Assembly: GCA_009845995.1 (NCBI GenBank)
Contig: VXYK01000030.1
Coordinates: 17,440 to 81,439, forward strand
Length of the DNA stretch: 64,000 nucleotides
Direction of reading: 5' to 3'
Source: Acidimicrobiaceae bacterium
GTDB lineage: Bacteria > Actinomycetota > Acidimicrobiia > Acidimicrobiales > Aldehydirespiratoraceae
Shown: positions 43,032 to 64,000 of the stretch, in pieces
How positions within the stretch are numbered: position 1 is the first letter of the stretch
Layout: each line of letters starts with the position of its first letter
Made by a program: the position numbers and the translations under genes
Notes under the pieces: model-generated
Told to the model about the DNA's origin: nothing
Database searches by the model: none
Seen by the model: the letters and a program-made list of their open reading frames with translations, nothing else

Positions 43032-43051
43032 CACAACCTCCTGTAGGGGAT

Positions 43052-44711: not shown

Positions 44712-45188
44712 TTACCTGCCCCACTGCTCTTGAAGCGTGGCGTATACGCCCTGGTCCCACGAAAACTCCACCATGTTGCCGTCCGGATCGCGCAGCATCG
44801 TGATGTAACCGATCGGAGGGGGCATCATCGTGGGAGGCATCGCCAAACAGCCGGCGGACTCGCCTTTGGCTGCAATGTCATCGATGTCGTCTCGGGTGGG
44901 CAATTCCATGCCGAGGTGGGCGAACGGGGCGAGCGTTGCGAGCGGGGAGCCGGCGAAGGGGTCTTTGCCTTCGAAGAACTGCGCGAGCACCAAGATGAAC
45001 GGGTTGTTGGTTTCGCCTGGCATCCCCAACCAGGCACCGTACCCATCGGCGTCTTCACGTCGATCGATCAGTTCGAGAGGTGTGAATTCTGTGTACCACC
45101 TGATCGTTGCGTCCATGTCCTTGACCCGCAGAGCGATGTGCGTCCATCGAGGTTCGGTGGGGTGAAGTTGGTAAGTCGATTCGGTCAC
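44712..45188 (-). CDS. VOC family protein (glyoxalase/bleomycin-resistance fold)
   Basis: Track ORF extends to 45254. The GTG at 45188 is preceded by GGGAGG at a 6-nt spacing. WTHIALRVKDMDATIRWY, DPDGNMVEF. Confidence 0.75.
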   Translation of the reverse strand: MTESTYQLHPTEPRWTHIALRVKDMDATIRWYTEFTPLELIDRREDADGYGAWLGMPGETNNPFILVLAQFFEGKDPFAGSPLATLAPFAHLGMELPTRDDIDDIAAKGESAGCLAMPPTMMPPPIGYITMLRDPDGNMVEFSWDQGVYATLQEQWGR

Positions 45189-45215
45189 AGCAGGCCTCCC
45201 GGTCCCGAAACTAGC

Positions 45216-45236
45216 ATGGTCAGTTGGTCTGACCAA
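45216..45236. promoter_or_regulatory. 21-nt box ATGGTCAGTTGGTCTGACCAA containing GntR-type palindrome TTGGTC-T-GACCAA
   Basis: Read directly. It lies in the divergent VOC/GntR intergenic region. An identical 21-mer recurs at 54877-54897. Confidence 0.65.
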
Positions 45237-45272
45237 CAGCGCCAGAAACGGCAACCGAAGGACTGTGGTATC

Positions 45273-45285
45273 TTGGTCGGACCAT
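45273..45285. promoter_or_regulatory. Second GntR-type palindrome TTGGTC-G-GACCAT
   Basis: TGGTCGGACCA is a perfect palindrome 47 nt from the first site and about 50 nt upstream of the GntR start. Confidence 0.55.
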
Positions 45286-45333: not shown

Positions 45334-46059
45334 GTGATACCAGATGATCATCCCTTCGAACCGATATCGCGCCAGACCGTCAGTTCCCAGATTCGGACCC
45401 AACTGCTGGAGAGAATCACCACCGGTGAGCTCGCCCCAGGCGCACGGATGCCCTCGGAGCGAGACCTCAGCGAACGCTTCAGAGTTGCACGCACCTCCGT
45501 GCGGGAAGCGATGCAGGGTCTGGCATCTCTAGGCGTCGTGGAGCGGCGCGGCAACCGGTCCTACGTTGCGGAGCACCTCCCCGAAGTCGTCGTAGCACCG
45601 GGCGTTACCGGGAACGGCAAATCCTTCGTTGCCGAACTGTTCGAAACTCGTCGAGTACTCGAGGTGCCACTTTTCGAGATGGCCGCAGTGCGGGCGAGCG
45701 ACGAAGACCGCGAACGAGTCGCAGCGCTCGCAGCGCGTTTCAACGGATCTCTGGAGATCGGCAAATTCCGCCGCCTCGATCGTGAGTTTCACACCACTAT
45801 CGCCGCTAGCTGCGACAACCCGCTGCTCATCGAACTGTACGGCAAGGTGCTCGACCGGCTCTTCCGGTCAGTCGAGTTCTTCACGTTGTTGAGTTCGGAG
45901 GCCAACCAGGCCGAAGTCGCCCAAATCATCGCCGATTCATCCGACGGCCATCACGCGATCTCGGCCGCCTTCGTCGCCGGCGACGCCACAGCAATGCGAT
46001 TAGCCGCCGAATCACACCTCGACCAGGTCGAACACTCCATGATCGACAAACTCACCTGA
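45334..46059 (+). CDS. GntR family transcriptional regulator (FadR/FCD subfamily)
   Basis: The winged HTH is MPSERDLSERFRVARTSVREAMQGLASLGVV. The helical FCD-like C-terminal domain has His residues (FHTTIA, DGHHAI). Confidence 0.88.
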   Translation: MIPDDHPFEPISRQTVSSQIRTQLLERITTGELAPGARMPSERDLSERFRVARTSVREAMQGLASLGVVERRGNRSYVAEHLPEVVVAPGVTGNGKSFVAELFETRRVLEVPLFEMAAVRASDEDRERVAALAARFNGSLEIGKFRRLDREFHTTIAASCDNPLLIELYGKVLDRLFRSVEFFTLLSSEANQAEVAQIIADSSDGHHAISAAFVAGDATAMRLAAESHLDQVEHSMIDKLT

Positions 46060-46096: not shown

Positions 46097-46876
46097 TCAA
46101 CCGGAGTGGGTCCAGACGGCGCGGCGTTTCTCGACAAAGGCCTTGGGCCACTCGGCTCCGTCACCACGCGCCGCGTTGCGGGCCATCACGTCAATGGCCA
46201 ACTCGTAGGCGTCGCCGGTTGACATGTCCATCTGGGCATAGAGCGTCTGTTTGCCGACGCCTTTGGCGTAGCGGCTGCCCCGTGTCGCCCGCATCAACAG
46301 GTCCAGCGTGGCGGATTCGAGTTCGTCAGTAGACACCACACGGTTCACAAGCCCCCAGTCGAGCGCCGTGGCCGCGTCGATGGTGTCGCCGGTGAGCGCC
46401 AGTTCCACTGCCCGCTTTCGTCCCAACGGCCGCGCCACCGCAACCATCGGCGTGTGGCAGAACAACCCGCCTTTGCCACCGGGCGTGGCGAAAGCAGCCT
46501 CGGTGCTCGCCACGATCAGATCGGCACTGGCTGCCAGTTGCGCACCGGCAGCGGTGGCCAATGCATGCACCTGAGCGATCACAACCTGGGGAATCTCAGC
46601 GATTGCAGTCATCGCCGACGTGCACAGCGTGAACAGTGCCCTGAGTTCGTCCTCGTTCATCTTCGCCATCTCGCCGAGGTCATGCCCTGAGGAGAAGACC
46701 GGCCCGTTGGCCGCGAGCACTATGCCCGCCACTTCGCCGTCAGCGCCTGTGGTACGAAAGGCGTCTTCAAGCTCAGCCAGCATCTCCGATGACAGACAAT
46801 TTCGCCGCTCCGGTCGGTTGAGCGTGATCGTCACGTAAGCGTCATCACGCTTGTAGAGAAGATTGCGATAGTCCAT
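46097..46876 (-). CDS. Enoyl-CoA hydratase/isomerase (crotonase) family protein
   Basis: VTITLNRPERRNCLS, VFSSGHDL, FATPGGKGGLFC (oxyanion-hole regions). Confidence 0.88.
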   Translation of the reverse strand: MDYRNLLYKRDDAYVTITLNRPERRNCLSSEMLAELEDAFRTTGADGEVAGIVLAANGPVFSSGHDLGEMAKMNEDELRALFTLCTSAMTAIAEIPQVVIAQVHALATAAGAQLAASADLIVASTEAAFATPGGKGGLFCHTPMVAVARPLGRKRAVELALTGDTIDAATALDWGLVNRVVSTDELESATLDLLMRATRGSRYAKGVGKQTLYAQMDMSTGDAYELAIDVMARNAARGDGAEWPKAFVEKRRAVWTHSG

Positions 46877-48618: not shown

Positions 48619-48623
48619 CCGAC

Positions 48624-49400: not shown

Positions 49401-49511
49401 ACCCTCTGAAAACCGCCACAGTTTCGGAGAATCGGCTAGAACCCAACCGCTCCGGCTGGTTCGAACCTAGATTTGAACTCCGAGAGGTCGCAGCGGACGA
49501 AAGGAACCGAC

Positions 49512-50243: not shown

Positions 50244-50339
50244 GAGCGACGCTCATGGCGACCTCGCTGAACCCTTGACATCGACAGGACTGACCGAAGT
50301 CGGCAGGCAAGTCAATTGAAGTTTGTGGCAATATCTGAC

Positions 50340-51587: not shown

Positions 51588-51637
51588 CGACCTTCAGGGG
51601 AGCTGTCTCGGGTTTCGTGGCTCGCGCGGATTCGACA

Positions 51638-51664
51638 CTTGGTGACAGACACCCGTTTACCAAG
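51638..51664. promoter_or_regulatory. Inverted repeat CTTGGT-N15-ACCAAG immediately upstream of the antitoxin-like ORF
   Basis: Arms at 51638-51643 and 51659-51664. The ATG at 51666 follows 1 nt later. Only 6 bp, so weak. Confidence 0.3.
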
Positions 51665-51665
51665 T

Positions 51666-51917
51666 ATGCTTTGGCTTGTGAGCAATGTACAGGAATATCT
51701 GGTGTCGTCGTCGGGCCAAGTGTGTCTGCCCGCCAGTGTTCGGCATCGCTGGGACCTGGACGACGGAGGACCGGTCGACGTACTCGATCTCGGATTTGGC
51801 GTGCTCACGGTGCCTAAGGGCGAGGGGCGCCATTTGCTCGCCGACCTCCTTGGACGCGACGAGCACGCCGCTTTCGTCCACAGCTTGGCCGACGATCCAG
51901 ACCTTGCCACGACGTGA
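51666..51917 (+). CDS. AbrB/MazE/SpoVT-type antitoxin-like protein
   Basis: Contains SSSGQVCLPASVRHRWDL, which resembles the SpoVT-AbrB swapped-hairpin motif (G.v.lPa.vR..l.l). The start is uncertain (track 51639). The stop overlaps the next ORF start (GTGA). Confidence 0.55.
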   Translation: MLWLVSNVQEYLVSSSGQVCLPASVRHRWDLDDGGPVDVLDLGFGVLTVPKGEGRHLLADLLGRDEHAAFVHSLADDPDLATT

Positions 51918-52345
51918 ACCAAACGGTCCTCGACGACCATCTCCTGCGCGACCTGCTTTCCGGTGAGTTGAGCGATGGGTTGGCGCAAGTGCTCGTCGAT
52001 CACGAACCAGCCACAACCAATCTCTATCTGGTTCGACTGTGCCGAAGCGTTGTGTCGGCAACCGGAGGGACTCTCACCGGTTCGTGGCCCAGCAGCGCCC
52101 GTCTGGCGTTGGGGCGACAACTCCTCGACCTTCACCCCGACATTGAGGTAGTTCCAGTTCGCAACCTTGCATACCGCATGGCCGAACTTGCCGACGCTCA
52201 TAAACTCTCTACTCTCGGCGCCGAAGCCGTCGCGGCTTCCGAACACCTTTCCGCCCCGCTATGCGTTTGGACCGGAGACGACGGGCCGCGTATTCGGTCT
52301 GCGATGTCGCATCTCGGCTGTGATTACCGCCCAATCCCTCGCTGA
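51914..52345 (+). CDS. PIN-like domain protein (putative VapC-type toxin)
   Basis: The N-terminal VLDDHLL resembles the first acidic PIN block and the C-terminal LCVWTGDDG resembles the last (lvT.D). The middle acidic residues cannot be confidently placed. Confidence 0.42.
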   Translation: MNQTVLDDHLLRDLLSGELSDGLAQVLVDHEPATTNLYLVRLCRSVVSATGGTLTGSWPSSARLALGRQLLDLHPDIEVVPVRNLAYRMAELADAHKLSTLGAEAVAASEHLSAPLCVWTGDDGPRIRSAMSHLGCDYRPIPR

Positions 52346-52359
52346 AATATGGTGAGCAC

Positions 52360-53220
52360 ATGAGGCGACAGGCTGAGTTGACCCATCTAAAAAGCGACGA
52401 GCCCCTCGAAGACGTGCTGGAGGTGCTCGACAGCGACGGGGCGGTGATCGTCGAGGAGTGCTTCAGCACCAAGATGATCGAACTGATCCTCTCCGAGTTG
52501 GCACCCCACATCGAGAAACCGGGCTCCAACAAGACCTACATCAACCCGCTCATTGCCGACTTCTACGGGGAGCACACACGCCATGTGACCGGCTTGTGCT
52601 CCAAGTCGCCCACATTTGTCGACGAGGTGCTGTTGCATCCGCTGATTCTCGGTGTTGCCGATGCCGTGCTGGGGCCGAGTTGCGCTGACTACCAACTGAA
52701 CGTGGCCCACATGCTGGTATTGGGGCCCGGTGCCGAGGTGCAGTTGCCGCATCGTGACGAAGACGTCTGGGTGCACATGCCAAACCCCCATCCCGAGATG
52801 CAGTTGGCGTCGATAACCGCTCTGTGCGACTTCACCCCGGGGATCGGTGCTACCCGGATCGTGCCTGGCAGCCACCACTGGGAACGGGCCCGTCTGGCCG
52901 AGCCTCACGAGTTCGCGGACGCCGTGATGCCCACCGGTTCGAGGGTCATCTACCTGGGTTCGACGATCCACGGTGCCGGATCCAACACCACCACCGATCA
53001 GCACCGGCCGGCGTTCCACCTGAGCTACATGCTGGGCTGGCTGCGCGCCGAGGAGAACAACTGCCTGGCGACGCCCCCCGATATCGCCCGCACCCTGCCC
53101 CGCCGGGCGCAGGAACTTCTCGGCTACGACGTCCACGACGCCATCAAAGACTTCGGAGGATTCCTCGGAGCACTCGACATGAAGATCCCCGCCGACATGC
53201 TCGCCTCCGGCGAACTCTAA
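52360..53220 (+). CDS. Phytanoyl-CoA dioxygenase (PhyH) family Fe(II)/2-oxoglutarate oxygenase
   Basis: The HxD motif is LPHRDEDVW, the distal His is GSTIHGAGSN, and the size is about 286 aa. Confidence 0.8.
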   Translation: MRRQAELTHLKSDEPLEDVLEVLDSDGAVIVEECFSTKMIELILSELAPHIEKPGSNKTYINPLIADFYGEHTRHVTGLCSKSPTFVDEVLLHPLILGVADAVLGPSCADYQLNVAHMLVLGPGAEVQLPHRDEDVWVHMPNPHPEMQLASITALCDFTPGIGATRIVPGSHHWERARLAEPHEFADAVMPTGSRVIYLGSTIHGAGSNTTTDQHRPAFHLSYMLGWLRAEENNCLATPPDIARTLPRRAQELLGYDVHDAIKDFGGFLGALDMKIPADMLASGEL

Positions 53221-53261
53221 GCGTTTAGAGTCGTTTAGAGTAGATTTAGAGTAGATCTAAA
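53214..53261. repeat. Cluster of five TTAGAG-core repeats: inverted copy, three direct TTTAGAGT copies at 10/11-nt spacing, inverted copy
   Basis: Read directly. ACTCTAA is at 53214-53220 and overlaps the PhyH TAA. TTTAGAGT is at 53224-31, 53234-41 and 53245-52. TCTAAA is at 53256-61. ACTCTAA-gcgt-TTAGAGT forms a 7-bp hairpin. Confidence 0.85.
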
Positions 53262-53424
53262 ACACCTGGTAAACCTACAAAACACTAGCTTGTAATTCCT
53301 CTAGTGTCATTAAAAGCGGGCTTTCCAGTAGGCGCGAGGATCCTTTGGAGATTGCCCCACCCATTCGATCAGCCCTTCCTCTTAGATCACTCGAGGGTTA
53401 CAGCACCACCGAGAAAGCCCTGAA

Positions 53425-54108
53425 TTAGCTGTGCACGCTCATCACTTCGTATCCCATACTTTCGAGCTGCTCGATCGCGGCTTTTGGATCGTTGCGCACG
53501 GTCGCACGTGCTTGTCGACGATTCCAATCAGAAAGCGATTCATCGAGCCTTGGACGCCAGCCAGGACTCCAATCCGTGAACAGCTGTTCGCGATGAAGAA
53601 ACTCTAGGAGTTCTTCAACCGTTGGTCTGAAACGTCGACCACCGACGGGAAAGTGGATTTCCTGCAGCCGAGGCAATGGAAGCCCAGCGGTGCCATAAAT
53701 CCACCCGAGTTCTACCGATTCAGCGTGTAGGTGGATATGAGCCGAAGGTTTGTTGGACGCGTCCCGGTCGTATTCGATACGGAACACGGGCCTTGGACTG
53801 CGTTGAACGTCGGGCTGCACCCACAGGCCGAACGTCGATCGTTGAACAGCGAGGTGATCTTGTTGGCGATCAAGCGACACATGAAATTCGACCTTTAGCA
53901 TCAACCTTGGTGGGCCGTTTCCGTCGCACTTACGTAGCAGCGGAATGAAGGCAAACCCCGATTCAAAGGGTGACGGGCCAATCCGACGTTGTTGATTGTC
54001 GCTTGCGTCGACAACAACAAATTCAGGAGCGTCGCGAAGGCATCCTTGAATTAGATCGGTGAGGTTGTCCGCGAATCTGGTCGATTCCGCTTCGAGGCTG
54101 TCGATCAC
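53425..54108 (-). CDS. Hypothetical protein, 227 aa, no recognisable family (islet gene 2)
   Basis: Track ORF 53425..54159. The GTG at 54108 gives a GTGA overlap with the stop of the upstream 63-aa ORF. Lower G+C than the flanks (32/60 in two hand-counted samples). Confidence 0.55.
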   Translation of the reverse strand: MIDSLEAESTRFADNLTDLIQGCLRDAPEFVVVDASDNQQRRIGPSPFESGFAFIPLLRKCDGNGPPRLMLKVEFHVSLDRQQDHLAVQRSTFGLWVQPDVQRSPRPVFRIEYDRDASNKPSAHIHLHAESVELGWIYGTAGLPLPRLQEIHFPVGGRRFRPTVEELLEFLHREQLFTDWSPGWRPRLDESLSDWNRRQARATVRNDPKAAIEQLESMGYEVMSVHS

Positions 54109-54296
54109 GCGACAGCCGGGAGGTCGCTTTCGGTCAACACGTCGCCCCAGATAAGCCACAAATCCCTTAGGAGTGGGTTGTCGAGGCGATCCTCTTTGCC
54201 GAGTTCGTAAAAAGCGCGCAAACCCAGTCCGGTTGAGTTGGCATTCCTCTCCAACATCTCAACAATCTCTTCGCGGGGAACAGTCAAGCTGGTCAT
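54105..54296 (-). CDS. Hypothetical small protein, 63 aa (islet gene 1)
   Basis: The ATG at 54296 is preceded by SD-like GGGAGAG (minus strand gaaaGGGAGAGacaATG). It is translationally coupled to the 227-aa ORF. No family recognised. Confidence 0.5.
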   Translation of the reverse strand: MTSLTVPREEIVEMLERNANSTGLGLRAFYELGKEDRLDNPLLRDLWLIWGDVLTESDLPAVA

Positions 54297-54418
54297 TGTC
54301 TCTCCCTTTCGTCTCGGCTCAAGAGGTAGCCACTCTCCTGTTCTTCACAGTATATGAGACGGTGTGACACTAACTGAGGCCAGACAAGCGCGTCCATCGC
54401 TATTCCCGGGTTTCGGGG

Positions 54419-54862
54419 TTATTGGATGCCGAAGGGGGCCAGCGCGGTTTGGGCTTCGGGGGAGGTCTGGGTCAGGAAGACAGCGCTGTCCCAGTAGTCG
54501 GTGCGGTGGGTTATGAGTCCGTCGCCGACGACCAGGCGTTGTACACCTCGCACGGATATCGGGTGCTCGTCTTGCCAGTTAGCAGTCATGGTGTAGAACG
54601 CTGCAACCTCTGAGCCCTCGACGATCAGGTTTTCGATCTCGTAGCGCAAATCAACCATGTCGGCGAGGAAACCGACGAGTCGCTGGCGATACACATCGCG
54701 ACCGATGCACCCAGCCCCGAGAGCCGAGGTGTGCTCGTTCACAAAGTCAGGCGACACATGGGCGGCAATGGTGTCGGCGCTGCCCGAGGCAAAAGATTCC
54801 AGATAGGAACGGGCGATCGCGCTCGGGGTCGCAGCTTCGTTGGATTCGTTCACAAACCTCAC
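54419..54862 (-). CDS. SnoaL-like / NTF2-fold protein (ester cyclase-like)
   Basis: 147 aa. IARSYLESFASGSADTIAAHVSPDFVNEH..., and the DYWD near the C-terminus is typical of SnoaL-like domains. GTG start. Confidence 0.78.
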   Translation of the reverse strand: MRFVNESNEAATPSAIARSYLESFASGSADTIAAHVSPDFVNEHTSALGAGCIGRDVYRQRLVGFLADMVDLRYEIENLIVEGSEVAAFYTMTANWQDEHPISVRGVQRLVVGDGLITHRTDYWDSAVFLTQTSPEAQTALAPFGIQ

Positions 54863-54876: not shown

Positions 54877-54897
54877 ATGGTCAGTTGGTCTGACCAA
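54877..54897. promoter_or_regulatory. Second copy of the 21-nt box ATGGTCAGTTGGTCTGACCAA (GntR-type operator)
   Basis: Identical to 45216-45236. It lies in the 81-nt divergent SnoaL/Rieske intergenic region, 7 nt downstream of a TAGAAT -10-like hexamer (54865-54870). Confidence 0.65.
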
Positions 54898-54943
54898 AAC
54901 GGTCAGCGCCGATCGAGCCAACGCCAGACGGGGGGATGATCCG

Positions 54944-55942
54944 ATGACACGATTCGCAGACCGAGCACCGCTGCGAACCGCTTGGTATCCGGTTGCAGAA
55001 TCCACCGATGTCACCGACAAACCCCATGCCACCCGCCTGCTCGGAGAAAATCTCGTCCTCTGGCGTTCACAGAACGGAGACCTGATCGCAGCACCTGATG
55101 AGTGCCCACACCGGCAAGCGCCGCTCTCAATCGGCACGTACAACGAAGGCGAAATCACCTGCGCATACCACGGCTGGACGTTCGGAGAACGAGGACAATG
55201 CGTGCTCGTGCCGTCATCTGGTCCGGGCGCTCCCATACCCCCAACCGCGCATCTGAACTGCCGCAACGTGCAGGAACGATACGGTCTCGTCTGGGTCTGC
55301 CCCGGTGAACCGGCAGTCGCCATCCCCCGAATCCCCCAGGACGAAGATCCGGCATTTCGCAGGCTGAACAGCGGAGTTGAAACCTGGAAAGTGTCAACCC
55401 CTCGGCTCGTCGACAACTTCATGGACTTCAGCCACTTCCCATGGGTCCACACCGGGACGTTCGGTCTCGGCCAGGACCCGCTTATCCCCAAGCTGAACCT
55501 TCAGCAACTGGACGAAGACTTCTACGGCTACATATACGAGGTCTACGCCGCGAACCCCGACGAAGCCACCGCGGTCAGCGGCAGCGAAGAAGACGTGGTT
55601 CATCGGGTCATGACAACCGGTTTCGCCCTGCCGTTCATGGTCAGAAGCACGATCCGCTACGACGACGGTCTCGAACACATCCTGCTGCTGGTGAGCACCC
55701 CACGCGACGACCTCGAGTCGACGTTCACATTCGTTGTCTGGCGAAACGACGACCACAGCGTCGACCCCGAAGAGATCATCGCCTTCGACCGTGCCATCGG
55801 CGCGGAAGACAAAGCCATGCTCGAACAGGTGCCCGGCACCCTGCCGCTCACCCGAACCGGCGTCGTCAACGTTCAATCCGACAAACCGTCGGTCGAGTGG
55901 CGCCGCCGCTTCGCCGAATTCATCCAACTGGAGGTTTCATGA
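54944..55942 (+). CDS. Rieske [2Fe-2S] non-heme iron oxygenase (VanA/PaO-type, single-component oxygenase subunit)
   Basis: Track ORF 54731..55942. ATG at 54944 (MTRFADRAPLRTAWYPV). Rieske ligands are CPHRQAPLS...CAYHGW. Confidence 0.85.
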   Translation: MTRFADRAPLRTAWYPVAESTDVTDKPHATRLLGENLVLWRSQNGDLIAAPDECPHRQAPLSIGTYNEGEITCAYHGWTFGERGQCVLVPSSGPGAPIPPTAHLNCRNVQERYGLVWVCPGEPAVAIPRIPQDEDPAFRRLNSGVETWKVSTPRLVDNFMDFSHFPWVHTGTFGLGQDPLIPKLNLQQLDEDFYGYIYEVYAANPDEATAVSGSEEDVVHRVMTTGFALPFMVRSTIRYDDGLEHILLLVSTPRDDLESTFTFVVWRNDDHSVDPEEIIAFDRAIGAEDKAMLEQVPGTLPLTRTGVVNVQSDKPSVEWRRRFAEFIQLEVS

Positions 55943-56436
55943 TCAGCGGCATGAACCACGCCGTGCTCTACGTGCGTGATTCGGAACGGCACCGAAGCTT
56001 CTACGAAGACGTGCTCGGGTTCAGCACCGTAATCAACGCAGTCGGGCAATACGCGTTCATGCGCGCGCCCGGTTCCGAAAACCACCACGACATCGCCTTC
56101 TTTGCCATTGGCGAGCACTCCGGCGCATCGCAGGCCGGACGGCAAACGGTCGGGATGTACCACATCGCCTGGGAAGTCGCGACCCTTGCCGAGCTAGTCG
56201 AAATGGAACAACGGCTGCGGGCTGCCGGTGTTCTCGTCGGTGCCTCAGATCACGGCGTCAACAAGAGCCTGTACTGCAAAGATCCCGACGGGCTCGAGTT
56301 CGAAGTGATGTGGCTCGTACCCCCCGACCAATGGGGTGAGGACGAACACGAAGCGATCATCCGACCCCTGGATCTGGCCGCAGACATGAAACGTTTCGAC
56401 AGCGTCGCAAGCGAGAACACGAAAGAGACAGCGTGA
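55939..56436 (+). CDS. VOC family protein (extradiol dioxygenase/glyoxalase fold)
   Basis: Track ORF 55441..56436. The ATG at 55939 gives an ATGA overlap. MNHAVLYVRDSERHRSFYEDVLGF, YHIAWEV, DPDGLEFEV. Confidence 0.82.
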   Translation: MISGMNHAVLYVRDSERHRSFYEDVLGFSTVINAVGQYAFMRAPGSENHHDIAFFAIGEHSGASQAGRQTVGMYHIAWEVATLAELVEMEQRLRAAGVLVGASDHGVNKSLYCKDPDGLEFEVMWLVPPDQWGEDEHEAIIRPLDLAADMKRFDSVASENTKETA

Positions 56437-56825
56437 ACGTCTCCAACCACTACTGCCACTTCTTCGAAGAGGACGAGTTCAACGAGACCGACCGGCCAGG
56501 GTTCAGGCGGCGGGTGATCACAGGAGAGAACCTGCAGCTCTGCTTCTGGCGCATCAAGGGCGGAGCGACCGGTTCGTACCTGCACAAACACGATGACAAC
56601 GAACAACTCGGGATCATCGTGCGAGGGTCTCTGGATTTCCGAATCTTCGACGGTGACGAGACCGATAATTCATCGAAACGTGAAGTTCTGAGCGCCAACC
56701 AGGCGTATCTGGCGGCACCGGGCGTGTGGCACGGCGACAGCATCTTCGTGGGCGACGACGAATACGACGAATGCTGGATCCTCGACGTGTTCAGCCCACC
56801 ACGCGACGATTTGGTAGGCGGCTGA
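56433..56825 (+). CDS. Cupin domain protein
   Basis: 130 aa with GTGA overlap to the upstream stop. GSYLHKHDDNEQLGIIVRG...PGVWHG fits the two cupin motifs (H.H...E / H). Confidence 0.7.
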   Translation: MNVSNHYCHFFEEDEFNETDRPGFRRRVITGENLQLCFWRIKGGATGSYLHKHDDNEQLGIIVRGSLDFRIFDGDETDNSSKREVLSANQAYLAAPGVWHGDSIFVGDDEYDECWILDVFSPPRDDLVGG

Positions 56826-58948
56826 TGGCAGATTGGAGGCTCGCGGTCGACATAGGCGGGACGTTCACCGATGTCGTGCTGCTCGACGCCGAATCCGGAC
56901 GGATCGTCGTCGACAAGACCCTCACCACACCTGCCGCACCGCTCGACGGCGTGCGCACCGGGCTCACCCAACTCCTTGACCGGGCCGACGTGAAACCCCA
57001 GGACATCAACGCGCCCATCGTTCACGCGACCACGCTCATCACCAACGCCCTGATCGAAGGCAAAACCGGGCGAGCCGCGCTGGTAACCACGCAGGGCTTC
57101 GGTGACACGCTGCTCATACGCGATGAACACCGTTACGACATGTACGACCTGCAGATCGAGTTCCCGCCGCCGCCTATCCCACGCGAGCTGACCTTCGAGC
57201 TGAACGAGCGGACGATCGCCGACGGCAGCGTCGCCACCGAACCGAGCACAGAAGACCTTGAAGAGTTGACCCGACAGCTGCTCGACGCCGAGGTCGAGTC
57301 GGTTGCTGTCTGCCTGCTCAACTCCTACGTCAACGCAACCAACGAACAGAAAGTCGCCGCTCACCTGCGCCAAGCCCTAGGGGTTCCCGTCTGCATCTCC
57401 GCGGAGATTTCGCCACAGATCCGCGAATACCCGCGGATGACCACCACCGCCTGCAATGCAGCCACCATGCCGGTCATCGGTCCGTACCTCGATGAGCTCC
57501 AGAAGTGGCTGTCGGATGAGGGGTTCGGGGGATCGGTGCTGATGATGCTGTCCAACGGCGGCGTTGTGTCGGCCGGCGACGCGGCCCGCGGGCCGATCCG
57601 ACTCGTCGAATCTGGTCCCGCGGCAGGTGCGCTCGCCGGAAGCTGGTTCGCCAAACGGCTCGACATCAAACGGCTGTTGTGCTTCGACATGGGCGGCACG
57701 ACCGCAAAGGCCTGCCTCATCGAACACGGTGAGCCTGAGTTGACCAACACCTTCGAAGTGGCCCGTGCATACCGTTTCAAGAAGGGATCCGGCTACCCCG
57801 TGTCGGTTCCTTCGGTGGACCTCGTCGAGATCGGTGCCGGAGGCGGCAGCTTGGCTCGGGTGGATCAGTTCGGCTTGTTGAAGGTCGGTCCCGAGTCGGC
57901 CGGAGCTGATCCCGGACCCGCAAGCTACGCCCAAGGCGGGACGATCCCGGCCGTAACCGACGCCGACGTGATCCTCGGCTTGCTCGATCCCGGCGCATTC
58001 CTCGGCGGCGACATGCCCCTCGACGCATCGTTGGCTGACACGGCCACTGAAGCCGTGGCCGAAGACCTGTCGCTCAGCATGATCGACACCGCGGCCGGTA
58101 TCCAGGACGTTGTCAACCAAAACATGGCTGCAGCAGCATCGATGCACGGGGTTGAGATGGGTATGGACCTTCGAGGAATTCCCATCATCGCCTTTGGCGG
58201 TGCCGGCCCGGTTCACGCCTGCGGTGTGGCGGAACTGCTCGAATCTGATGAAGTGATATTCCCTGTCAACGCCAGCGTTCTCTCCGCTTTCGGGACACTG
58301 GTGTCGCCTGTACGAATCGACCTCGCCCGCTCGATGCCCCGCCTGATCAAATCGGTGGACCCCGCTGAGCGAGACCGTCTGCTCGACGAACTCCGCGACG
58401 AGGGGCGCCGGGTTCTGAACGCTGCGGGCGTGCCTGATGATGCGATCGTGTATCGCTACGGAGTTGACGCCCGCTACGCCGGGCAGGGCAACGAGATCAC
58501 CATTTGGGTTGGTGAAGGAACCTCATGGCCCGTCGATCAGGCCCAAGTTGTCGAAGCCTTCGAAGCCGAATATCGCCGAATCTACGGAATGACGATCCCC
58601 GACGTGGAAGTGGAGGCGATCACCTGGCGATTGTCCGCGCTTGCGCCGGGCGTGGCCGGAGCCGCGGAAGCGGGTGAGGGGTCGACACCGGGCACGTTGT
58701 CTTCGCCGGGCGCAGCCGGAGCCGCGGAAGCTTCGCCGGTGCCGAATCGCAGCAGGCCGATCGTGTTCGGGCGCGGGGTCGCCGCGGTCGACACTCCGGT
58801 GTACGACCGCAGCGACCTGGCTGTCGGGACCAGGTTCAACGGCCCGGCGGTCGTCGAAGAACGAGAAACCACCTCCGTCATCCGCCCTGGTTGGTCAGTA
58901 GAGGTCGCCGCTGACGGAAGCCTGATGGCAACGAGGATGCAGCCATGA
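56825..58948 (+). CDS. Hydantoinase/oxoprolinase family protein, A (beta) subunit type (HyuA-like)
   Basis: Track ORF 56726..58948. The ATG at 56825 overlaps the cupin TGA (TGATG). N-terminal ASKHA-fold block is LAVDIGGTFTDVVL, later CFDMGGTTAK. Confidence 0.9.
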   Translation: MADWRLAVDIGGTFTDVVLLDAESGRIVVDKTLTTPAAPLDGVRTGLTQLLDRADVKPQDINAPIVHATTLITNALIEGKTGRAALVTTQGFGDTLLIRDEHRYDMYDLQIEFPPPPIPRELTFELNERTIADGSVATEPSTEDLEELTRQLLDAEVESVAVCLLNSYVNATNEQKVAAHLRQALGVPVCISAEISPQIREYPRMTTTACNAATMPVIGPYLDELQKWLSDEGFGGSVLMMLSNGGVVSAGDAARGPIRLVESGPAAGALAGSWFAKRLDIKRLLCFDMGGTTAKACLIEHGEPELTNTFEVARAYRFKKGSGYPVSVPSVDLVEIGAGGGSLARVDQFGLLKVGPESAGADPGPASYAQGGTIPAVTDADVILGLLDPGAFLGGDMPLDASLADTATEAVAEDLSLSMIDTAAGIQDVVNQNMAAAASMHGVEMGMDLRGIPIIAFGGAGPVHACGVAELLESDEVIFPVNASVLSAFGTLVSPVRIDLARSMPRLIKSVDPAERDRLLDELRDEGRRVLNAAGVPDDAIVYRYGVDARYAGQGNEITIWVGEGTSWPVDQAQVVEAFEAEYRRIYGMTIPDVEVEAITWRLSALAPGVAGAAEAGEGSTPGTLSSPGAAGAAEASPVPNRSRPIVFGRGVAAVDTPVYDRSDLAVGTRFNGPAVVEERETTSVIRPGWSVEVAADGSLMATRMQP

Positions 58949-60531
58949 CGGCCACCGACACGCCACAAGCGACCTTCGACCCCATCGAACTCGAGATTCT
59001 CTGGCAATCCCTCATATCGACGGTGAACGAACAGGCCCGGGCGCTGCAACGATCAGCTTTCTCGCCGATCGTGCGCGAAGCCGGCGACCTAGCGAACGCA
59101 GTTTTCGACCGCCGCGGGCGCATGGTCGCTCAAGCGGTGACAGGCACGCCGGGTCACATCAACTCGCTCGCCATCGGCGCTTCCAAGATGCTTGAGGAGT
59201 ACCCCCTCGATCAGATCGAACCCGGCGATGTGCTTATCACCAACGACCCGTACAAAACCGCCGGTCAGCTACTCGATGTGACGGTGCTCGTGCCCGCATG
59301 GCGCAACGGGCGCATCATCGCACTGTTCGGTTCGACCATTCATCACACCGATGTCGGTGGCTACGGCATAGGTGCCGGCGGGCGAGATGTATTCGAAGAA
59401 GGCCTTTGGATTCCCATCTGCAAGCTGATGAGAGGCGGGCAGCGCAACCCCGACGTGTGGAAGTTCATCCTGTCCAACGTCCGCCAACCCGACCACATGG
59501 CCGGTGACCTGCACGCGCAGATGGCCTCTGGAGAAGTGGGTGCACAGAGGTTGTACACGCTCTGCGAAACGCACGGACTCGACGACATCGAAGCGCTGGC
59601 CGACGAGATCATCGACCGCTCCGAACAGGCCACCCGGGCGAGCATCCAGGCACTCCCAGTCGGCACCTACAACGCCAAAGCGGTGCTCGATCTGGCCGAC
59701 AGCAGCCGCATCAACATTGTGTGCTCCCTTGAGGTCGACCCTGACGCAGGCGAGATCATCGTCGACTATGAGGGCAGCTCAGAAGCATCTCCGTGGGGCA
59801 TCAACGTGGTGATGAACTACACGCACGCCTACACCACGTTCACCGTCAGGTCGGTCCTCAACCCAGACATTCCCAACAATCACGGAAGCCTCGCGCCGAT
59901 CAAAGTCAAGGCCCCCGAAGGCTCGATCGTCAACGCGGTCACCCCACAGCCGGGAACAGCCCGACACGTAGTGGGGATGTTCCTGCCCAACGCGTTGCTC
60001 AAAGCACTTGCACAGGTCCGACCCGAAGCGGCAATGGCCGAAGGATCCGGCGCGGTCTGGACCATGCAGGTCAACGGCAACCATCCCGACGGCAGTCCCT
60101 TCATCACCGCGATGTTCACCTACGCGGGTGGTGTGGGAGCTCGCGCCACCAAACCCGGCCTCAATGCCTGCTCCTACCCGACCGGAGTCTCGGCCGTGCC
60201 AATCGAAGTTGTGGAAGCCTCGGCTCCGATCCGGTTTCGGGAGAAATCACTGCGGGCCGACTCCGGCGGCAGAGGGGCACAGACCGGAGGCTTGGGCCAA
60301 ACGATCGAATTCAGTGTCGACACCGAAAAACCCTGGCAACTCAACGCTGTCACCAGCCGGTTGGCAGATCCTCCCCTCGGTGTGTTCGGTGGTGAAGCAG
60401 GCGCTGCCGGGAGTTTCAACGTCAACGGTCAACCCGTACAGACGCAGGCTCGGATCACCCTCGACGGCAGCGATGTCATCCGGCTCGAACTCCCAGGTGG
60501 GGGAGGCTACGGAGCACCCGACGATGAATGA
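58945..60531 (+). CDS. Hydantoinase B/oxoprolinase family protein (HyuB-like)
   Basis: ATGA overlap. DPIELEILWQSLISTVNEQARALQRSAFSPIVREAGDLANAVFD and ITNDPYKTAGQLLDV are typical HyuB blocks. Confidence 0.9.
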   Translation: MTATDTPQATFDPIELEILWQSLISTVNEQARALQRSAFSPIVREAGDLANAVFDRRGRMVAQAVTGTPGHINSLAIGASKMLEEYPLDQIEPGDVLITNDPYKTAGQLLDVTVLVPAWRNGRIIALFGSTIHHTDVGGYGIGAGGRDVFEEGLWIPICKLMRGGQRNPDVWKFILSNVRQPDHMAGDLHAQMASGEVGAQRLYTLCETHGLDDIEALADEIIDRSEQATRASIQALPVGTYNAKAVLDLADSSRINIVCSLEVDPDAGEIIVDYEGSSEASPWGINVVMNYTHAYTTFTVRSVLNPDIPNNHGSLAPIKVKAPEGSIVNAVTPQPGTARHVVGMFLPNALLKALAQVRPEAAMAEGSGAVWTMQVNGNHPDGSPFITAMFTYAGGVGARATKPGLNACSYPTGVSAVPIEVVEASAPIRFREKSLRADSGGRGAQTGGLGQTIEFSVDTEKPWQLNAVTSRLADPPLGVFGGEAGAAGSFNVNGQPVQTQARITLDGSDVIRLELPGGGGYGAPDDE

Positions 60532-62101
60532 GACCGCCAAGATTCCAACGTTCTCGTCGGTTTGGGAGCGTGCCGTGCGCTCCCGAGCTGATGAGACGTT
60601 CCTGATCTTCGAGGATCCGCGCGGCCGGGTGACGCAGTGGACCTACCAAGCCTTCGATTCGCAGGTCCAACGAGTCGCGGCCCGGCTCAATGCCGAGGGC
60701 GTTGGTGCTGGCAGCTGTGTTCATCTGGCGTTGACCAACTGCCCGACTTTCGTGGCGGTGTGGCTCGCAGCCAACCGGCTCGGCGCCTGGATCGTGCCCG
60801 CAGACCCGATGGGCAAAGAACCCGAATTCGCCGAGCAGATCGAGCGCACCTCCCCGACCGTGGGGTTCTGTTCGACGAGTCGGAGCGCTCAGTATCGAGC
60901 GGGTGTGGCCAACGCAGCCGCCGTGGCCTCAGTCCCTGCGGTGCTGGCGGGATCCGCGCCGCCCGAAGCGATGACAGTGATCGAGATCGACGAAACCGAC
61001 GCCACCTTCGAGCCGTTCGCCGAAACCGAGTTCACTGCTTGGGCCACACCCGAACCGACCGATCTCGCCGCGGTGATGTTCACCAGCGGAACCACCGGAC
61101 GCCCCAAAGGAGTGTCCGTCACCCAAGCCAACTACGCCTTCGCCGGAAAGATCATGGCGCAAGCGGCCGATCTCACCCCCGAAGACCGCCAACTCGTTGT
61201 GCTGCCGTTGTTCCACGCCAACGCCCAGTACTACTCGTTCGCCTCGGCGATCTGGACAGGAGCGTCGGTGGCGTTGATGCATACCTTCTCAGCCAGCGGA
61301 TTCTTGCCACAAGCAGCACGACATCAAGCCACCTGCGCCAGCCTTTTTGCGGCTCCGTTGCGTATGATCCTGGCTCGCGGCGGACCGGTCCAAGGACTGA
61401 AGCTGAGGCATTGCTGGTTCGCCCAGAACTTGGCAGATGACCAGTACCAGACGATCTGCGACTGGTTCGGCTGCCGTCCCCGCCAGCTGTACGGCATGAC
61501 CGAAACCATCCCCGCGGTCCTCACAGACGGACCGGGCGACCCCCGGCCCGACTCGATGGGTTTCGTCACCGCTGGATGCGAAGTCGAGATCCACAACCCC
61601 GACGGAATGCGCTGTACCGCCGACGAGCTTGGCGAGGTAGTGGTCAAAGGAACACCCGGCGTCACCATCTTCGGGGGCTACTTCGAGGACCCTGCGACTA
61701 CTGCGGCCAACTATCGCGGCGAGTGGTTCCGCACAGGCGACCGGGCATGGCACGACACCGAAGGACGTTTCTTCTTCGACGGCCGTCGTTCAGACGTACT
61801 CAAGGTCTCGGGCGAGAACGTGTCGACCGTTGAGATCGAAGCGGTGCTGTGCGCGCACCCGCTGGTCCTGGAAGCATCGGTGATCGGGGCTCCCGACCCG
61901 ATCCGGAATGAAGTGCCGATGGCATTCGTTGTGCCTGCTGACACCACGAATCCCCCAGAGAACGAAGACCTGCTGCAATGGTGTGACCGTCGCCTTTCCA
62001 AGCACAAGCAACCCCACCAAATCACCTTGCTTTCAGAACTCCCTCGCACCAGCGTGGGGAAAATACGAAAATTCATGTTGAAACAAGGAGCTGGTGTCTA
62101 A
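60524..62101 (+). CDS. AMP-dependent synthetase/ligase (acyl-CoA or aryl-CoA ligase)
   Basis: Track ORF 60008..62101. The ATG at 60524 (MNETAKIP) overlaps the HyuB end by 8 nt. AMP motif is MFTSGTTGRPKGV, then YGMTE, WFRTGD, and a C-terminal GKIRK. Confidence 0.88.
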   Translation: MNETAKIPTFSSVWERAVRSRADETFLIFEDPRGRVTQWTYQAFDSQVQRVAARLNAEGVGAGSCVHLALTNCPTFVAVWLAANRLGAWIVPADPMGKEPEFAEQIERTSPTVGFCSTSRSAQYRAGVANAAAVASVPAVLAGSAPPEAMTVIEIDETDATFEPFAETEFTAWATPEPTDLAAVMFTSGTTGRPKGVSVTQANYAFAGKIMAQAADLTPEDRQLVVLPLFHANAQYYSFASAIWTGASVALMHTFSASGFLPQAARHQATCASLFAAPLRMILARGGPVQGLKLRHCWFAQNLADDQYQTICDWFGCRPRQLYGMTETIPAVLTDGPGDPRPDSMGFVTAGCEVEIHNPDGMRCTADELGEVVVKGTPGVTIFGGYFEDPATTAANYRGEWFRTGDRAWHDTEGRFFFDGRRSDVLKVSGENVSTVEIEAVLCAHPLVLEASVIGAPDPIRNEVPMAFVVPADTTNPPENEDLLQWCDRRLSKHKQPHQITLLSELPRTSVGKIRKFMLKQGAGV

Positions 62102-63285
62102 TGAGCACTTCGAGTCCCATGAGCATCTTGAACAGCGACCTACTCTCGCGGCTCGACGCTTCGACCAACGACGTGTCGCAAGCCGTAACCCTGCCGCCGG
62201 AAATCTATACCTCTGACGAGTTCCTCTCGTTTGAAACCGAAGCGCTGTACATGAGGGAATGGCTGTGTGTCGGCCGAGCCGAGCGAATCGCCAATGTGGG
62301 GGATTGGTTCACCGTCAATCTCGTCGATGAACCGCTGATCATCACCCGCGACAAGCAGGGGACGGTCAGGGCGATGTCGGCGGTGTGTCAGCACCGTGCC
62401 ATGCAGGTATGTGAAGGCGAGGGCAACAGCACAACTTTCAAATGCCCCTACCACCACTGGAACTACGCCCTCGACGGACGCCTGTTGGGCGCTCCGGCCA
62501 TGGAACGCACCGAAGACTTCAACAAATCCGAATGCGGTTTGCCCCAGCTCAAGGTTGAGGAATGGCTGGGGTTCGTCTTCGTGAACTTCGACCCGGACGC
62601 CGCGCCTCTCGGACCCACCCTCAGCCGCTACGAGCCGTTCCTTGAGAATTACGACCTCTCCAACGCCATATGCCCCGGTACCTTCACCCTCCAAGACATG
62701 CCTTGGAACTGGAAGGTCATGTTCGAGAACTTCAACGACGGCTACCACGCCAACCGGCTTCACCAATTCGTGCAGGATTTCTGCCCGTCGAGCATGTCGG
62801 GCTTTCCTGTGCCGTGGTCCGACGACTCCAACGTCATTTTCCGCACAGCCGGATACACCCATATCGACGGCGGTTTCAATGCCACACATCGGGTCATCAT
62901 GGACGTCTTCCCCGAACTGACCGAAGAAGAACGCACGCGATCAACTTTCGCTCTGATCCCGCCCACACTGTGTTTCGGCACCGCGCCGGATCAGTGCTTC
63001 TTCTTTCTGGTTCGTCCCACGGGCCCCGAATCCATTGACGTGGAGATCGGTTATATCTTCCATCCTTCAGCGCTGCAGGACCCTCTGTTCGAGCACAAAA
63101 TGGCGCTTTCGGACGCCGGCGTGCAAGTGTTCGTTGCTCAGGACCAGGACGCCACCACCAAGGTCCAGCGAGGGTTGCGTTCGCGTTTTGCACCACGAGG
63201 CCGCTACTCGTGGCAAGAGGAAAGCCACATCCAATTCAACCGCTGGCTGGTTCAGCGTTATCGCAAAGCCTGGCCCAATCAATAG
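62101..63285 (+). CDS. Rieske aromatic-ring-hydroxylating oxygenase, alpha subunit
   Basis: The ATG overlaps the ligase TAA (TAATG). SD AAGGAG is at 62085-62090. Rieske ligands are CQHRAMQV...CPYHHW. The catalytic domain has NDGYHANRLH. Confidence 0.88.
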   Translation: MSTSSPMSILNSDLLSRLDASTNDVSQAVTLPPEIYTSDEFLSFETEALYMREWLCVGRAERIANVGDWFTVNLVDEPLIITRDKQGTVRAMSAVCQHRAMQVCEGEGNSTTFKCPYHHWNYALDGRLLGAPAMERTEDFNKSECGLPQLKVEEWLGFVFVNFDPDAAPLGPTLSRYEPFLENYDLSNAICPGTFTLQDMPWNWKVMFENFNDGYHANRLHQFVQDFCPSSMSGFPVPWSDDSNVIFRTAGYTHIDGGFNATHRVIMDVFPELTEEERTRSTFALIPPTLCFGTAPDQCFFFLVRPTGPESIDVEIGYIFHPSALQDPLFEHKMALSDAGVQVFVAQDQDATTKVQRGLRSRFAPRGRYSWQEESHIQFNRWLVQRYRKAWPNQ

Positions 63286-63361: not shown

Positions 63362-64000
63362 ATGCCCAAGCAACTGCTAAAGAAACCACTGCGACTGTTG
63401 ACGTTGCTGCTCGCGTTCACGCTCATCGCCGCTGCTTGCGGAGACGACGATGGCGACGACGAGCCAGAAGCCACGCCGACAACGGAGGCGTCGCAGCCCA
63501 CTGACGATATGCCTGAGGACGAACCCGAGGACATGCCCGAAGACGAGCCTGAGGACATGCCCGAGGACGAACCCGAGGAAATGCCCGAACCCGAGACTGA
63601 TGAAATCGTCGCGGCGTTCGACAGCAACGGCGACGGGACTGTCACCATCGGGGTCGCTGCCGCAGGTCCGCGCGACGACAACGGCTACTACCAGTCGCTG
63701 GTGAACTTCGCCGAACAGTTCTCCGCCGACAACGGTTTCGCTCCACCAATTGTGTCGGACAGGATCGGAGCGGCCGAGGCCGCGCAGGCACTGTCTGACC
63801 TGGCGCAGCAGGGAGTCGACATCTTGATGGTCGGCGCCTCCGAGATCGCCGAGCCGCTACCGGACCTGACCGAGCAGTACCCCGACATATTCTGGTACTG
63901 CAACTGCGGCGCAGGATTCGATGAGTTGCCGGGTCTGGCACAAGCGACCGACTGGGGGGCACCCATCCATTACACAGCGGGTGTCGCTATGGCCGGAATC
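63362..64000 (+). CDS. BMP-family (Med/PnrA-like) ABC transporter substrate-binding lipoprotein; 3' end off the window
   Basis: Absent from the ORF track (open-ended). The ATG at 63362 follows SD AAGGAGGGG. My translation is MPKQLLKKPLRLLTLLLAFTLIAAACGDDD... (lipobox). An acidic repeat linker follows, then TIGVAAAGPRDDNGYYQSLVNFAEQ. Confidence 0.7.
   Translation, partial: MPKQLLKKPLRLLTLLLAFTLIAAACGDDDGDDEPEATPTTEASQPTDDMPEDEPEDMPEDEPEDMPEDEPEEMPEPETDEIVAAFDSNGDGTVTIGVAAAGPRDDNGYYQSLVNFAEQFSADNGFAPPIVSDRIGAAEAAQALSDLAQQGVDILMVGASEIAEPLPDLTEQYPDIFWYCNCGAGFDELPGLAQATDWGAPIHYTAGVAMAGI
63509..63580 (+). repeat. Tandem 24-nt coding repeat x3 (MPEDEPED units)
   Basis: Three consecutive near-identical units (ATGCC(T/C)GA(G/A)GACGA(A/G)CC(C/T)GAGGA(C/A)), followed by a partial fourth (ATGCCCGAACCCGAG). 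Confidence 0.85.

Follow-up and report, generated by a model that had tools for sequence, protein, structure and literature searches.

We analyzed a 64,000-nucleotide (nt) stretch of DNA (the window) from an Acidimicrobiaceae bacterium, corresponding to positions 17440 to 81439 of contig C25 of that organism's own genome (G000); the contig extends 2.6 kb past the window. At 54944 to 63285 the window carries a translationally coupled operon of seven genes, here called g1 to g7, in which a HyuA/HyuB-type enzyme (HyuAB) is combined with two Rieske oxygenases, a VOC protein, a cupin and a CoA ligase. The operon is part of a larger, regulated set of genes that includes an ATP-binding cassette (ABC) importer. 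The best explanation, which we hold with moderate confidence, is that the system imports an N-heterocyclic lactam or ureide and breaks it down aerobically, HyuAB being an ATP-driven hydrolase of the ring amide. No described pathway in the literature searched combines an ATP-dependent hydrolase of ring amides with alpha-only Rieske oxygenases, a VOC/cupin pair and an importer of the purine/flavin type.

A first-pass annotation of this DNA had reported seven plus-strand open reading frames (ORFs) across the operon. All are present, each with a single terminal stop, and Pfam upheld the family named for each product:

54944..55942, plus strand: g1, alpha-only Rieske non-heme-iron oxygenase of the VanA_C class (Pfam Rieske and VanA_C)
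55939..56436, plus strand: g2, single-module VOC protein (Pfam Glyoxalase/VOC)
56433..56825, plus strand: g3, monocupin (Pfam Cupin_2, 25.1 bits, just under the 27.2 cut-off)
56825..58948, plus strand: g4, HyuA-type subunit (Hydant_A_N, Hydantoinase_A and Hydant_A_C)
58945..60531, plus strand: g5, HyuB-type subunit (Pfam Hydantoinase_B)
60524..62101, plus strand: g6, adenylate-forming acyl-CoA ligase (Pfam AMP-binding and AMP-binding_C)
62101..63285, plus strand: g7, alpha-only Rieske oxygenase (Pfam Rieske and Ring_hydroxyl_A)
63362..64000, plus strand: 5' part of the gene for a Bmp/PnrA-type lipoprotein, which ends at window-equivalent position 64585; the ATPase and permease genes lie beyond the window

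The six junctions overlap or abut as had been described, with ATGA at 55939, GTGA at 56433, TGATG at 56823 to 56827, ATGA at 58945, an 8-nt overlap of g5 and g6 at 60524 to 60531, and TAATG at 62099 to 62103. Most operon starts are preceded by a purine-rich stretch; the start of g6 is the least certain of the seven, with several in-frame starts further upstream. The GC content is even over the operon region. We found no convincing internal plus-strand terminator (5 terminator-like sites on both strands versus 9.1 expected), and a terminator and promoter scan of the region gave nothing above chance. A search of RNA data gave no run covering the 9-kb stretch; two contig-type runs of a single study share about a quarter of its short words. 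Mere packing of genes with several unrelated functions is highly improbable: all six junctions are overlapping or abutting, relatives in other families preserve the order at 60 to 80% identity, and one operator motif, described below, marks all the promoters.

The coupling described in the first-pass annotation thus stood; the extent that it gave to the unit did not. The unit also takes in the importer downstream, a divergent SnoaL-like gene, and a GntR-type regulator whose operator is shared by further VOC and Rieske genes. The gene at 63362, which had been called a BMP-family lipoprotein, is one: read at full length past the window, it encodes a 407-amino-acid (aa) protein that matches Pfam Bmp at 26.5 bits (cut-off, 24.1) and PnrA by fold. 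It is followed by a double ABC ATPase and a permease, and the array carries on in contig C23 with the remainder of the permease, a second permease, a PIG3-type quinone oxidoreductase, an O-methyltransferase, a second VOC protein (VOC2) and a third Rieske oxygenase (Rieske 3), a 45% paralogue of g7. The order from the importer to Rieske 3 is unbroken in one complete relative (L012/L013). A survey of gene neighborhoods, as the annotation had proposed, showed that the order is kept in relatives and that the unit is larger than seven genes.

A profile scan of species-representative genomes, seeded with the cupin gene, gave 289 confirmed places, of which the best 80 were used for taxonomic labels. 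Among these 80, nearly all were labeled Acidimicrobiia, and they comprised Candidatus Aldehydirespiratoraceae (92 to 97% identity, evidently the window's own group), Ilumatobacter(aceae), Candidatus Poriferisocius, and metagenome-assembled genomes (MAGs) from soil, water and sediment. Two places bore Verrucomicrobiota labels (L071 and L111, MAG contigs labeled Verrucomicrobiales and Chthoniobacterales); their cupins are 69 to 73% identical to the Acidimicrobiia gene, and mis-binning is a more likely source of the labels than gene transfer.

Gene content was compared in 43 related 20-kb loci with full flanks, chosen by the cupin, whose own occurrence in 43 of 43 is by construction. The g7 gene was present in all 43, HyuA and HyuB in 41 each, the ATPase in 40, the CoA ligase and the Bmp protein in 38 each, and g2 in 36. 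Less common were g1 and the regulator (31 each), a VOC gene divergent from the regulator (VOC0; 27), and the SnoaL-like gene (24). The CoA ligase is gone from the clusters of genomes G035 and G186. Given the counts for the CoA ligase and g1, together with the gene content of G035, G186 and G130, these two genes appear to be accessory. Protein identity was 60 to 97% over at least three families of one order, and HyuAB was the most conserved part of the cluster (79 to 96%). Orthologues of g7 were 95 to 97% identical in 14 of 17 same-genus genomes (one partial) and 72 to 78% identical in four genomes of other genera or families. In one Poriferisocius-type locus (L108), the regulator, VOC0 and g1 are swapped for an enoyl-CoA hydratase (ECH), a CN-hydrolase, a cupin, a flavin monooxygenase, two SDRs and an Amidohydro_2 protein. 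When every ORF of 61 related loci was clustered without bias, no other widely conserved neighbor emerged beyond the query set.

All domains of HyuAB scored over their Pfam cut-offs (155.8, 265.4 and 41.3 bits for the HyuA domains and 484.4 bits for Hydantoinase_B), and the subunit genes are adjacent with an ATGA overlap. Among solved relatives, HyuA scored 355.8 bits with 7hk5 and 328.8 bits with 6yra, which we take to be the caprolactamase of Pseudomonas jessenii, versus 223.7 bits with acetophenone carboxylase and 188 bits with acetone carboxylase; for HyuB the corresponding values were 162.8, 152.7, 83.6 and 39.7 bits. The NCBIfam caprolactamase models CapA (473.9 bits) and CapB (178.7 bits) ranked over the carboxylase models ApcC (227 bits) and ApcD (78 bits), and neither pair reached its equivalog level, CapA and CapB falling far under their cut-off of 1000 and the Apc models under theirs of 1500. 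There are no more than two HyuA/B subunit genes, and the 528-aa HyuB matches a hydrolase-type B subunit in size. These features suggest that HyuAB is an ATP-dependent cyclic-amide hydrolase rather than a carboxylase. In their domain set, their two adjacent subunit genes and their best scores, g4 and g5 resemble the N-methylhydantoinase 7hk5, 6yra and 5-oxoprolinase; they differ from these ATP-dependent lactam hydrolases in their setting, among genes for Rieske oxygenases, a VOC protein and a cupin.

The first-pass annotation had listed lactams, ketones and N-heterocycles as possible substrates. The HyuA/B scores, the presence of two subunits only, and the fold of the binding protein favor the lactam and N-heterocycle branch and disfavor ketones. 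If a ketone were the substrate, HyuAB would act like acetophenone or acetone carboxylase to give a beta-keto acid, and g6 would form its CoA ester, as in the apc-bal operon, in which the carboxylase is reportedly followed by a CoA ligase. HyuA and HyuB do belong to the same superfamily as these carboxylases, and a CoA ligase gene comes directly after them. Ketone carboxylation is nevertheless decidedly improbable, because the carboxylase scores are much lower than the hydrolase scores, there are two subunits only, HyuB is hydrolase-sized, and some clusters that are complete in other respects lack the CoA ligase. For the acetone carboxylase gamma family, the genome gave no match in a search in which the positive control was also silent.

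HyuB is narrowly distributed at high identity. In a sample of 401 genomes of the phylum, matches of at least 79% identity were confined to six genomes of the same order and the window's own genome. The next tier of HyuAB, at 42 to 49% identity, keeps HyuA and HyuB and none of the other operon genes; among the HyuAB relatives whose surroundings were compared, one pair adjoins an M24 creatinase/prolidase-like gene. At E of ≤1e−60 the HyuB tally was 126 of 401, which takes in five unpublished genomes, with distant matches only. The window's own genome has a second HyuA/HyuB pair (contig C28, 32800 to 36600; L035), about 40% identical to g4/g5 and next to a GlnD-like uridylyltransferase gene, which is possibly the housekeeping 5-oxoprolinase.

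The binding protein of the importer points in the same direction as HyuAB. It has a Bmp domain, a PnrA-like fold and the signal cysteine of a lipoprotein ("...LIAAACGDD"). Its structural model (pLDDT 86.8) matched PnrA, Lbp, AtzT, RfuA and BmpD with TM scores of 0.72 to 0.81 (0.78 to 0.81 for PnrA alone). The ligands named in the titles of matched entries are all nucleosides or riboflavin, namely, adenosine, uridine, thymidine and inosine for PnrA, guanosine for Lbp, and riboflavin for RfuA; AtzT is presumably a binder of purines or hydroxyatrazine. By its model, the protein has the fold of binders of nucleosides, purines, triazines and riboflavin. An ESM Atlas look-up confirmed the Bmp family only. 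After the lipobox, at 63450 to 63640, there is a long acidic repeat linker rich in Pro, Glu, Asp and Met (PEDEPEDMPEDEPEDM...), which gives a spurious PARP-repeat match in Pfam.

Both Rieske oxygenases of the operon have intact CxH..CxxH and DxxHxxxxH ligand motifs (C54..H76 and D161..H169 in g1; C96..H118 and D213..H221 in g7). The ring-hydroxylating role first proposed for them held at the level of the Rieske families; the reaction itself was not borne out, since the closest solved relatives include N-demethylases and C-N-cleaving enzymes. For g1 the best solved relatives are SxtDIOX, SxtT and the methylxanthine N-demethylases NdmA and NdmB, and DdmC is also among its relatives. For g7 the best NCBIfam match is GbcA (139 bits versus a cut-off of 670), and the best solved relative is CntA. 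The matches of g7 to CntA, GbcA and Stc2 span residues 27 to 225 only and are barely above those to phthalate and biphenyl dioxygenases.

CntA, GbcA and Stc2 are group V Rieske monooxygenases, which g7 resembles in its alpha-only architecture, its Ring_hydroxyl_A domain and its best database scores. An E-C-x-H-C motif, with a bridging Glu and a Cys-x-x-Cys at the mononuclear iron, is ascribed to "some" group V members (PMC10952381). In g7, N-D-G-Y-H-A is aligned to the E-C-Y-H-C of CntA and Stc2, so that Asp replaces the bridging Glu and the Cys-x-x-Cys is absent. Group V enzymes are, furthermore, two-component systems with a PDR/VanB-type reductase, and the genome has no such reductase domain. 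These differences bear on the possibility that the system degrades a quaternary amine or betaine, with g7 acting as a group V-like enzyme, g1 as a second N-demethylase, g6 as a betaine-CoA ligase, and HyuAB opening the lactam of the demethylated amino acid. The best matches of g7 to GbcA and CntA and of g6 to CaiC agree with such a route, as does a choline sulfatase gene about 15 kb downstream on the adjoining contig. We consider it improbable, because g7 is without the E-C-x-H-C motif and has only the partial, barely distinctive matches just described, the scores are far under the cut-offs (139 versus 670 for g7 and 325 versus 651 for g6), no PDR-type reductase domain is encoded, and the binding protein is of the Bmp type, not the betaine-binding type.

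The annotation had noted no ferredoxin, reductase or oxygenase beta subunit in the window, and within the scope of our tests this is correct: of the 8 Fer2 matches in the genome, none is on the operon contig and none is of the PDR/VanB type. There was no match to Ring_hydroxyl_B or NAD_binding_1 in the genome, which is 95.5% complete; ferredoxin reductases of the glutathione-reductase type were not included in that search. None of the 15 Rieske-domain matches in the 3.26-Mb genome is accompanied by a beta subunit, so the lack of one in the operon is not a gap. One free-standing [2Fe-2S] ferredoxin of 103 aa is encoded on another contig (C20, 245097 to 245408). Because there are no beta subunits or NAD_binding_1 domains and the one free-standing ferredoxin is on another contig, the Rieske oxygenases probably share a ferredoxin system encoded elsewhere.

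In g2, residues H7, H49, H50, H75, H105, Y112 and E122 are invariant in 30 orthologues. The protein aligned to the catalytic domain of BphC with an E value of 3.4e−6 and reached no NCBIfam equivalog cut-off; its invariant residues fit a one-domain extradiol dioxygenase. Metal-binding cupins have HxH(x)3E in motif 1 and a His in motif 2, and g3 has the corresponding site, H51-x-H53-x3-E57 ... H100, invariant in 8 orthologues; its matches in the Protein Data Bank (PDB) are 4e2g and KdgF. The CoA ligase g6 scored 205.2 bits with AMP-binding and 72.1 bits with AMP-binding_C and has the phosphate-binding motif TSGTTGRPK at residue 187. Its best NCBIfam match, CaiC, scored 325 bits, below the equivalog cut-off of 651.

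These proteins could instead act on a carbocyclic aromatic acid, such as a methoxylated or hydroxylated benzoate, with g1 as an O-demethylase, g7 as a ring hydroxylase, g2 as the meta-cleavage enzyme, and HyuAB catalyzing a side reaction. The VanA_C class of g1 with its relative DdmC, the extradiol-like pattern of g2, the FCD-type regulator, and the O-methyltransferase and quinone-oxidoreductase-like genes downstream are all consistent with this scheme. HyuAB, however, cannot be incidental, because it is the most conserved part of the cluster (79 to 96%) and is present in 41 of the 43 loci; the binding protein is of the nucleoside/purine/flavin type; and the cluster showed no gene for a hydrolase, hydratase or aldolase of a meta pathway. 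On balance we regard an aromatic-acid pathway as unlikely. Each of the three routes (betaine, ketone carboxylation and carbocyclic aromatic acid) is less likely than the breakdown of a lactam or ureide.

The genes are also tied together by a shared regulatory motif. The regulator has the N-terminal GntR winged helix-turn-helix domain and C-terminal FCD domain of the GntR/FadR type, and a palindrome, TGGTCNGACCA, to which it is predicted to bind, is found in its own promoter and in those of its putative targets. The features involved are as follows:

44712..45254, minus strand: VOC0, a VOC/glyoxalase-fold protein divergent from the regulator (Pfam Glyoxalase, 49.2 bits)
45225..45235: operator-like palindrome TGGTCTGACCA, box 1 of the divergent VOC0/GntR promoter
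45274..45284: operator-like palindrome TGGTCGGACCA, box 2 of the VOC0/GntR promoter
45334..46059, plus strand: GntR plus FCD regulator (Pfam), presumed repressor of the regulon
46097..46876, minus strand: enoyl-CoA hydratase family gene (Pfam ECH_1), beside the regulator
54419..54862, minus strand: SnoaL-like (NTF2-fold) gene, divergent from g1 (Pfam SnoaL_2/SnoaL)
54886..54896: operator-like palindrome TGGTCTGACCA, in the divergent SnoaL/g1 promoter

In the orthologue alignment, conservation is lacking over the first ∼26 residues of the longest VOC0 ORF, which puts the actual start of the gene probably near 45176. Box 1 sits in a 21-nt stretch identical to 54878 to 54898. The window has 3 matches to TGGTCNGACCA versus 0.12 expected, and none of 100 shuffles reached 3. 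In the whole genome there are 7 exact copies, 3 inside genes and 4 in three divergent promoters of the system: two between VOC0 and the regulator, one before g1, and one on contig C23 between Rieske 3 and VOC2. The box recurs at the corresponding promoters in 7 orthologous loci. Among the 43 full-length related loci, it was present in 31 of the 31 with the regulator and in 4 of the 12 without; these loci hold 92 boxes in 876 kb, with none in the 8 Poriferisocius-type loci. By this sequence evidence, the genes belong to a GntR (FCD) regulon marked by the candidate operator TGGTCNGACCA.

In most relatives, VOC0 and the regulator are directly upstream of the operon, and the regulator is directly upstream in G341, G130, G186, G018 and G023. 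An insert of ∼8 kb (46097 to 54400) separates the two from the operon in the window's own genus only; in other families the regulator abuts the operon. The insert begins with the ECH gene, which is possibly an accessory partner of the CoA ligase: ECH homologues occur in 8 related loci, and an ECH gene is also first in the Poriferisocius-type array. The other genes of the insert encode a 288-aa protein of no known family, an HTH_67/SCO6745-family protein, two NmrA-like NAD(P)-binding proteins, a cytochrome P450, a 220-aa unknown protein, a PhyH-type dioxygenase and a 244-aa unknown protein.

From these data we infer the following course of lactam or ureide breakdown. The Bmp/PnrA-type ABC importer would take up a small N-heterocycle with a ring amide. 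The Rieske oxygenases, g7 always and g1 often, would then hydroxylate the ring or strip an N- or C-alkyl group, with electrons supplied by a ferredoxin system encoded elsewhere. The diol product would be cleaved by g2, in this scheme an extradiol-type dioxygenase of one domain, and the cleavage product might be converted by the metal cupin g3, be it an isomerase, a hydratase, a decarboxylase or a second dioxygenase. HyuAB would hydrolyze the ring amide with ATP to give an amino or ureido acid, which the CoA ligase, where present, would activate for a step of the enoyl-CoA-hydratase type. Either the substrate or a carboxylate intermediate would release the regulator from TGGTCNGACCA. This scheme builds on the observed gene content, coupling, conservation, operator with its link to the regulator, intact cofactor motifs and fold class of the binding protein; the individual reactions, their order and the class of substrate are inferred. 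Candidate compounds that fit parts of the evidence are those with a fused uracil ring (lumichrome, pterins and purines), quinolinone or pyridone carboxylates (products of kynurenate) and oxindole-type compounds.

Several points weigh against this explanation. The substrate class follows from resemblance at the family level, and all seven proteins stay below the NCBIfam equivalog cut-offs. FCD regulators, a CoA ligase, an ECH, and the decarboxylase-like Amidohydro_2 protein of the Poriferisocius-type array fit an aromatic carboxylate just as well. The type I extradiol signature is a His/His/Glu iron triad with a catalytic His and Tyr, and the correspondence of the g2 residues to it is putative; the model of g2 (pLDDT 85) matches small VOC folds generally, glyoxalases and Fos proteins as readily as dioxygenases. 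The HyuAB relatives at 42 to 49% identity in other Actinomycetota, and likewise the paralogous pair on contig C28, have unrelated neighbors and give no functional lead. Urease genes abut the cluster in G035 only and have no operator box, so urea as a product is a weak lead. Lastly, a formamidase-like gene found beside the G035 cluster has no homologue in the window's own genome.

Links to nitrogen-ring metabolism were also found outside the class. The best plasmid matches to g7, at 49% identity, are on pSA1 of Novosphingobium resinovorum (L127) and on a plasmid of Kozakia baliensis (L128). Both loci have a VOC2 homologue (49 to 52%) and a formamidase-like protein 46 to 50% identical to the one beside the G035 cluster; around them are genes for a RutA-like monooxygenase, RutB/BiuH-like hydrolases, an AtzE-family amidase (over its cut-off), and extradiol and TauD-type dioxygenases, and the Kozakia locus has a VanB reductase too. 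LigB/YgiD-type dioxygenases and MFS transporters are also encoded there. The plasmid loci thus share three protein types with the Acidimicrobiia system (g7-like Rieske, VOC2-like and formamidase-like); they differ from it in having putative ring opening by a RutA-like flavin monooxygenase, no HyuAB, and uptake by MFS rather than Bmp-ABC transporters, and are themselves uncharacterized. By sequence comparison they appear to tie the g7/VOC2 pair to genes for ureide- or pyrimidine-type ring breakdown, and they are probably another N-heterocycle pathway. A TRZ/ATZ-type deaminase gene is near the cluster in G035 and ∼10 kb away from it in the window's own genome.

The enzyme families of the operon are all known, and the statement in the first-pass annotation that their combination matches no described pathway stands: no cluster equal to it gene for gene was found in the literature compared. 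Searches on a cluster of hydantoinase, Rieske and CoA ligase genes, on Ilumatobacter hydantoinase, and on homarine and betaine routes yielded no matching cluster in the literature searched. In a term search of a comparison of sponge Actinobacteriota (PMC11706023), hydantoinase and the operon cluster were not mentioned.

The nearest precedents are the skt and lum clusters. In the part of the report consulted, the skt cluster of Rhodococcus ruber R1 is described as having a Rieske oxygenase and a caprolactamase-like SktIJ, which is induced ∼1,000-fold by skatole (bioRxiv 10.1101/2024.12.29.630347). As compared by text, not by sequence, skt and the operon are both actinobacterial clusters with a Rieske oxygenase and a HyuAB-like pair, that of skt serving N-heteroaromatic catabolism. 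The same excerpt gives skt an alpha/beta Rieske enzyme, a two-component flavin monooxygenase, an Xaa-Pro-peptidase-like gene and an SDR, and is silent on a VOC/cupin pair, a CoA ligase or a Bmp importer. The lum operon of Nocardioides simplex, for lumichrome and riboflavin, has, according to the section consulted, a P450, ring-amide hydrolases, a Rieske dioxygenase, an extradiol dioxygenase and a cupin (PMC12746152). It likewise represents an actinobacterial N-heterocycle route, in this case for a fused uracil ring, and RfuA is among the fold matches of our binding protein. Its own features, in that section, are ATP-independent pyrimidine-ring hydrolases (the text does not mention ATP), a TPP decarboxylase, the xanthine-oxidase-type LumJ, and an alpha/beta Rieske enzyme with ferredoxin and reductase. 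By this comparison of texts, the families of the TPP decarboxylase, LumJ and the alpha/beta Rieske enzyme are absent from the operon cluster, and HyuAB is undescribed in the cited section on lum.

A more specific proposal, which is doubtful at present, is that the system is an ATP-driven aerobic route, new to science, for a ubiquitous natural N-heteroaromatic compound. This might be kynurenate, or the route might be a second one for lumichrome, a pterin, or a methylated purine or pyrimidine, in which HyuAB replaces RutA-type or hydrolytic ring opening. We know of no genes assigned to the hydroxylase, extradiol dioxygenase and pyridone-ring-opening steps of the classical kynurenate (quinoline) pathway, and the literature searched held no genetic study assigning genes to the catabolism of kynurenate or dihydroxykynurenate. 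The conservation of a regulated cluster at 60 to 97% identity over hundreds of species points to a common natural substrate. If the proposal were true, the presence of the cluster in at least 289 genomes at the species level would make the Acidimicrobiia of sea, sponge and soil a major sink for the compound. Members of the Ilumatobacter, Aldehydirespiratoraceae and Poriferisocius groups abound in sea water, sponges, sediments and soils; most have not been cultured, and their diet is poorly known. The operator, the regulator and the binding protein are three direct handles on the ligand, whose identity would assign a function to at least 10 gene families and could fill an orphan step in N-heterocycle catabolism.

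Other genes flank the system. Upstream of VOC0 (41553 to 45254) the window encodes an SBP_bac_8 solute-binding protein whose N terminus bears a long extension, together with a luciferase-like monooxygenase and a histidine phosphatase. Downstream of the regulon on contig C23, positions 2857 to 7147 (L023) carry a choline-sulfatase-like gene, a split insertion sequence (IS) element (HTH_38 plus an rve integrase) and an HNH-domain gene, and at the end of the contig there are genes for a TauD-type dioxygenase and a TRZ/ATZ-type deaminase.

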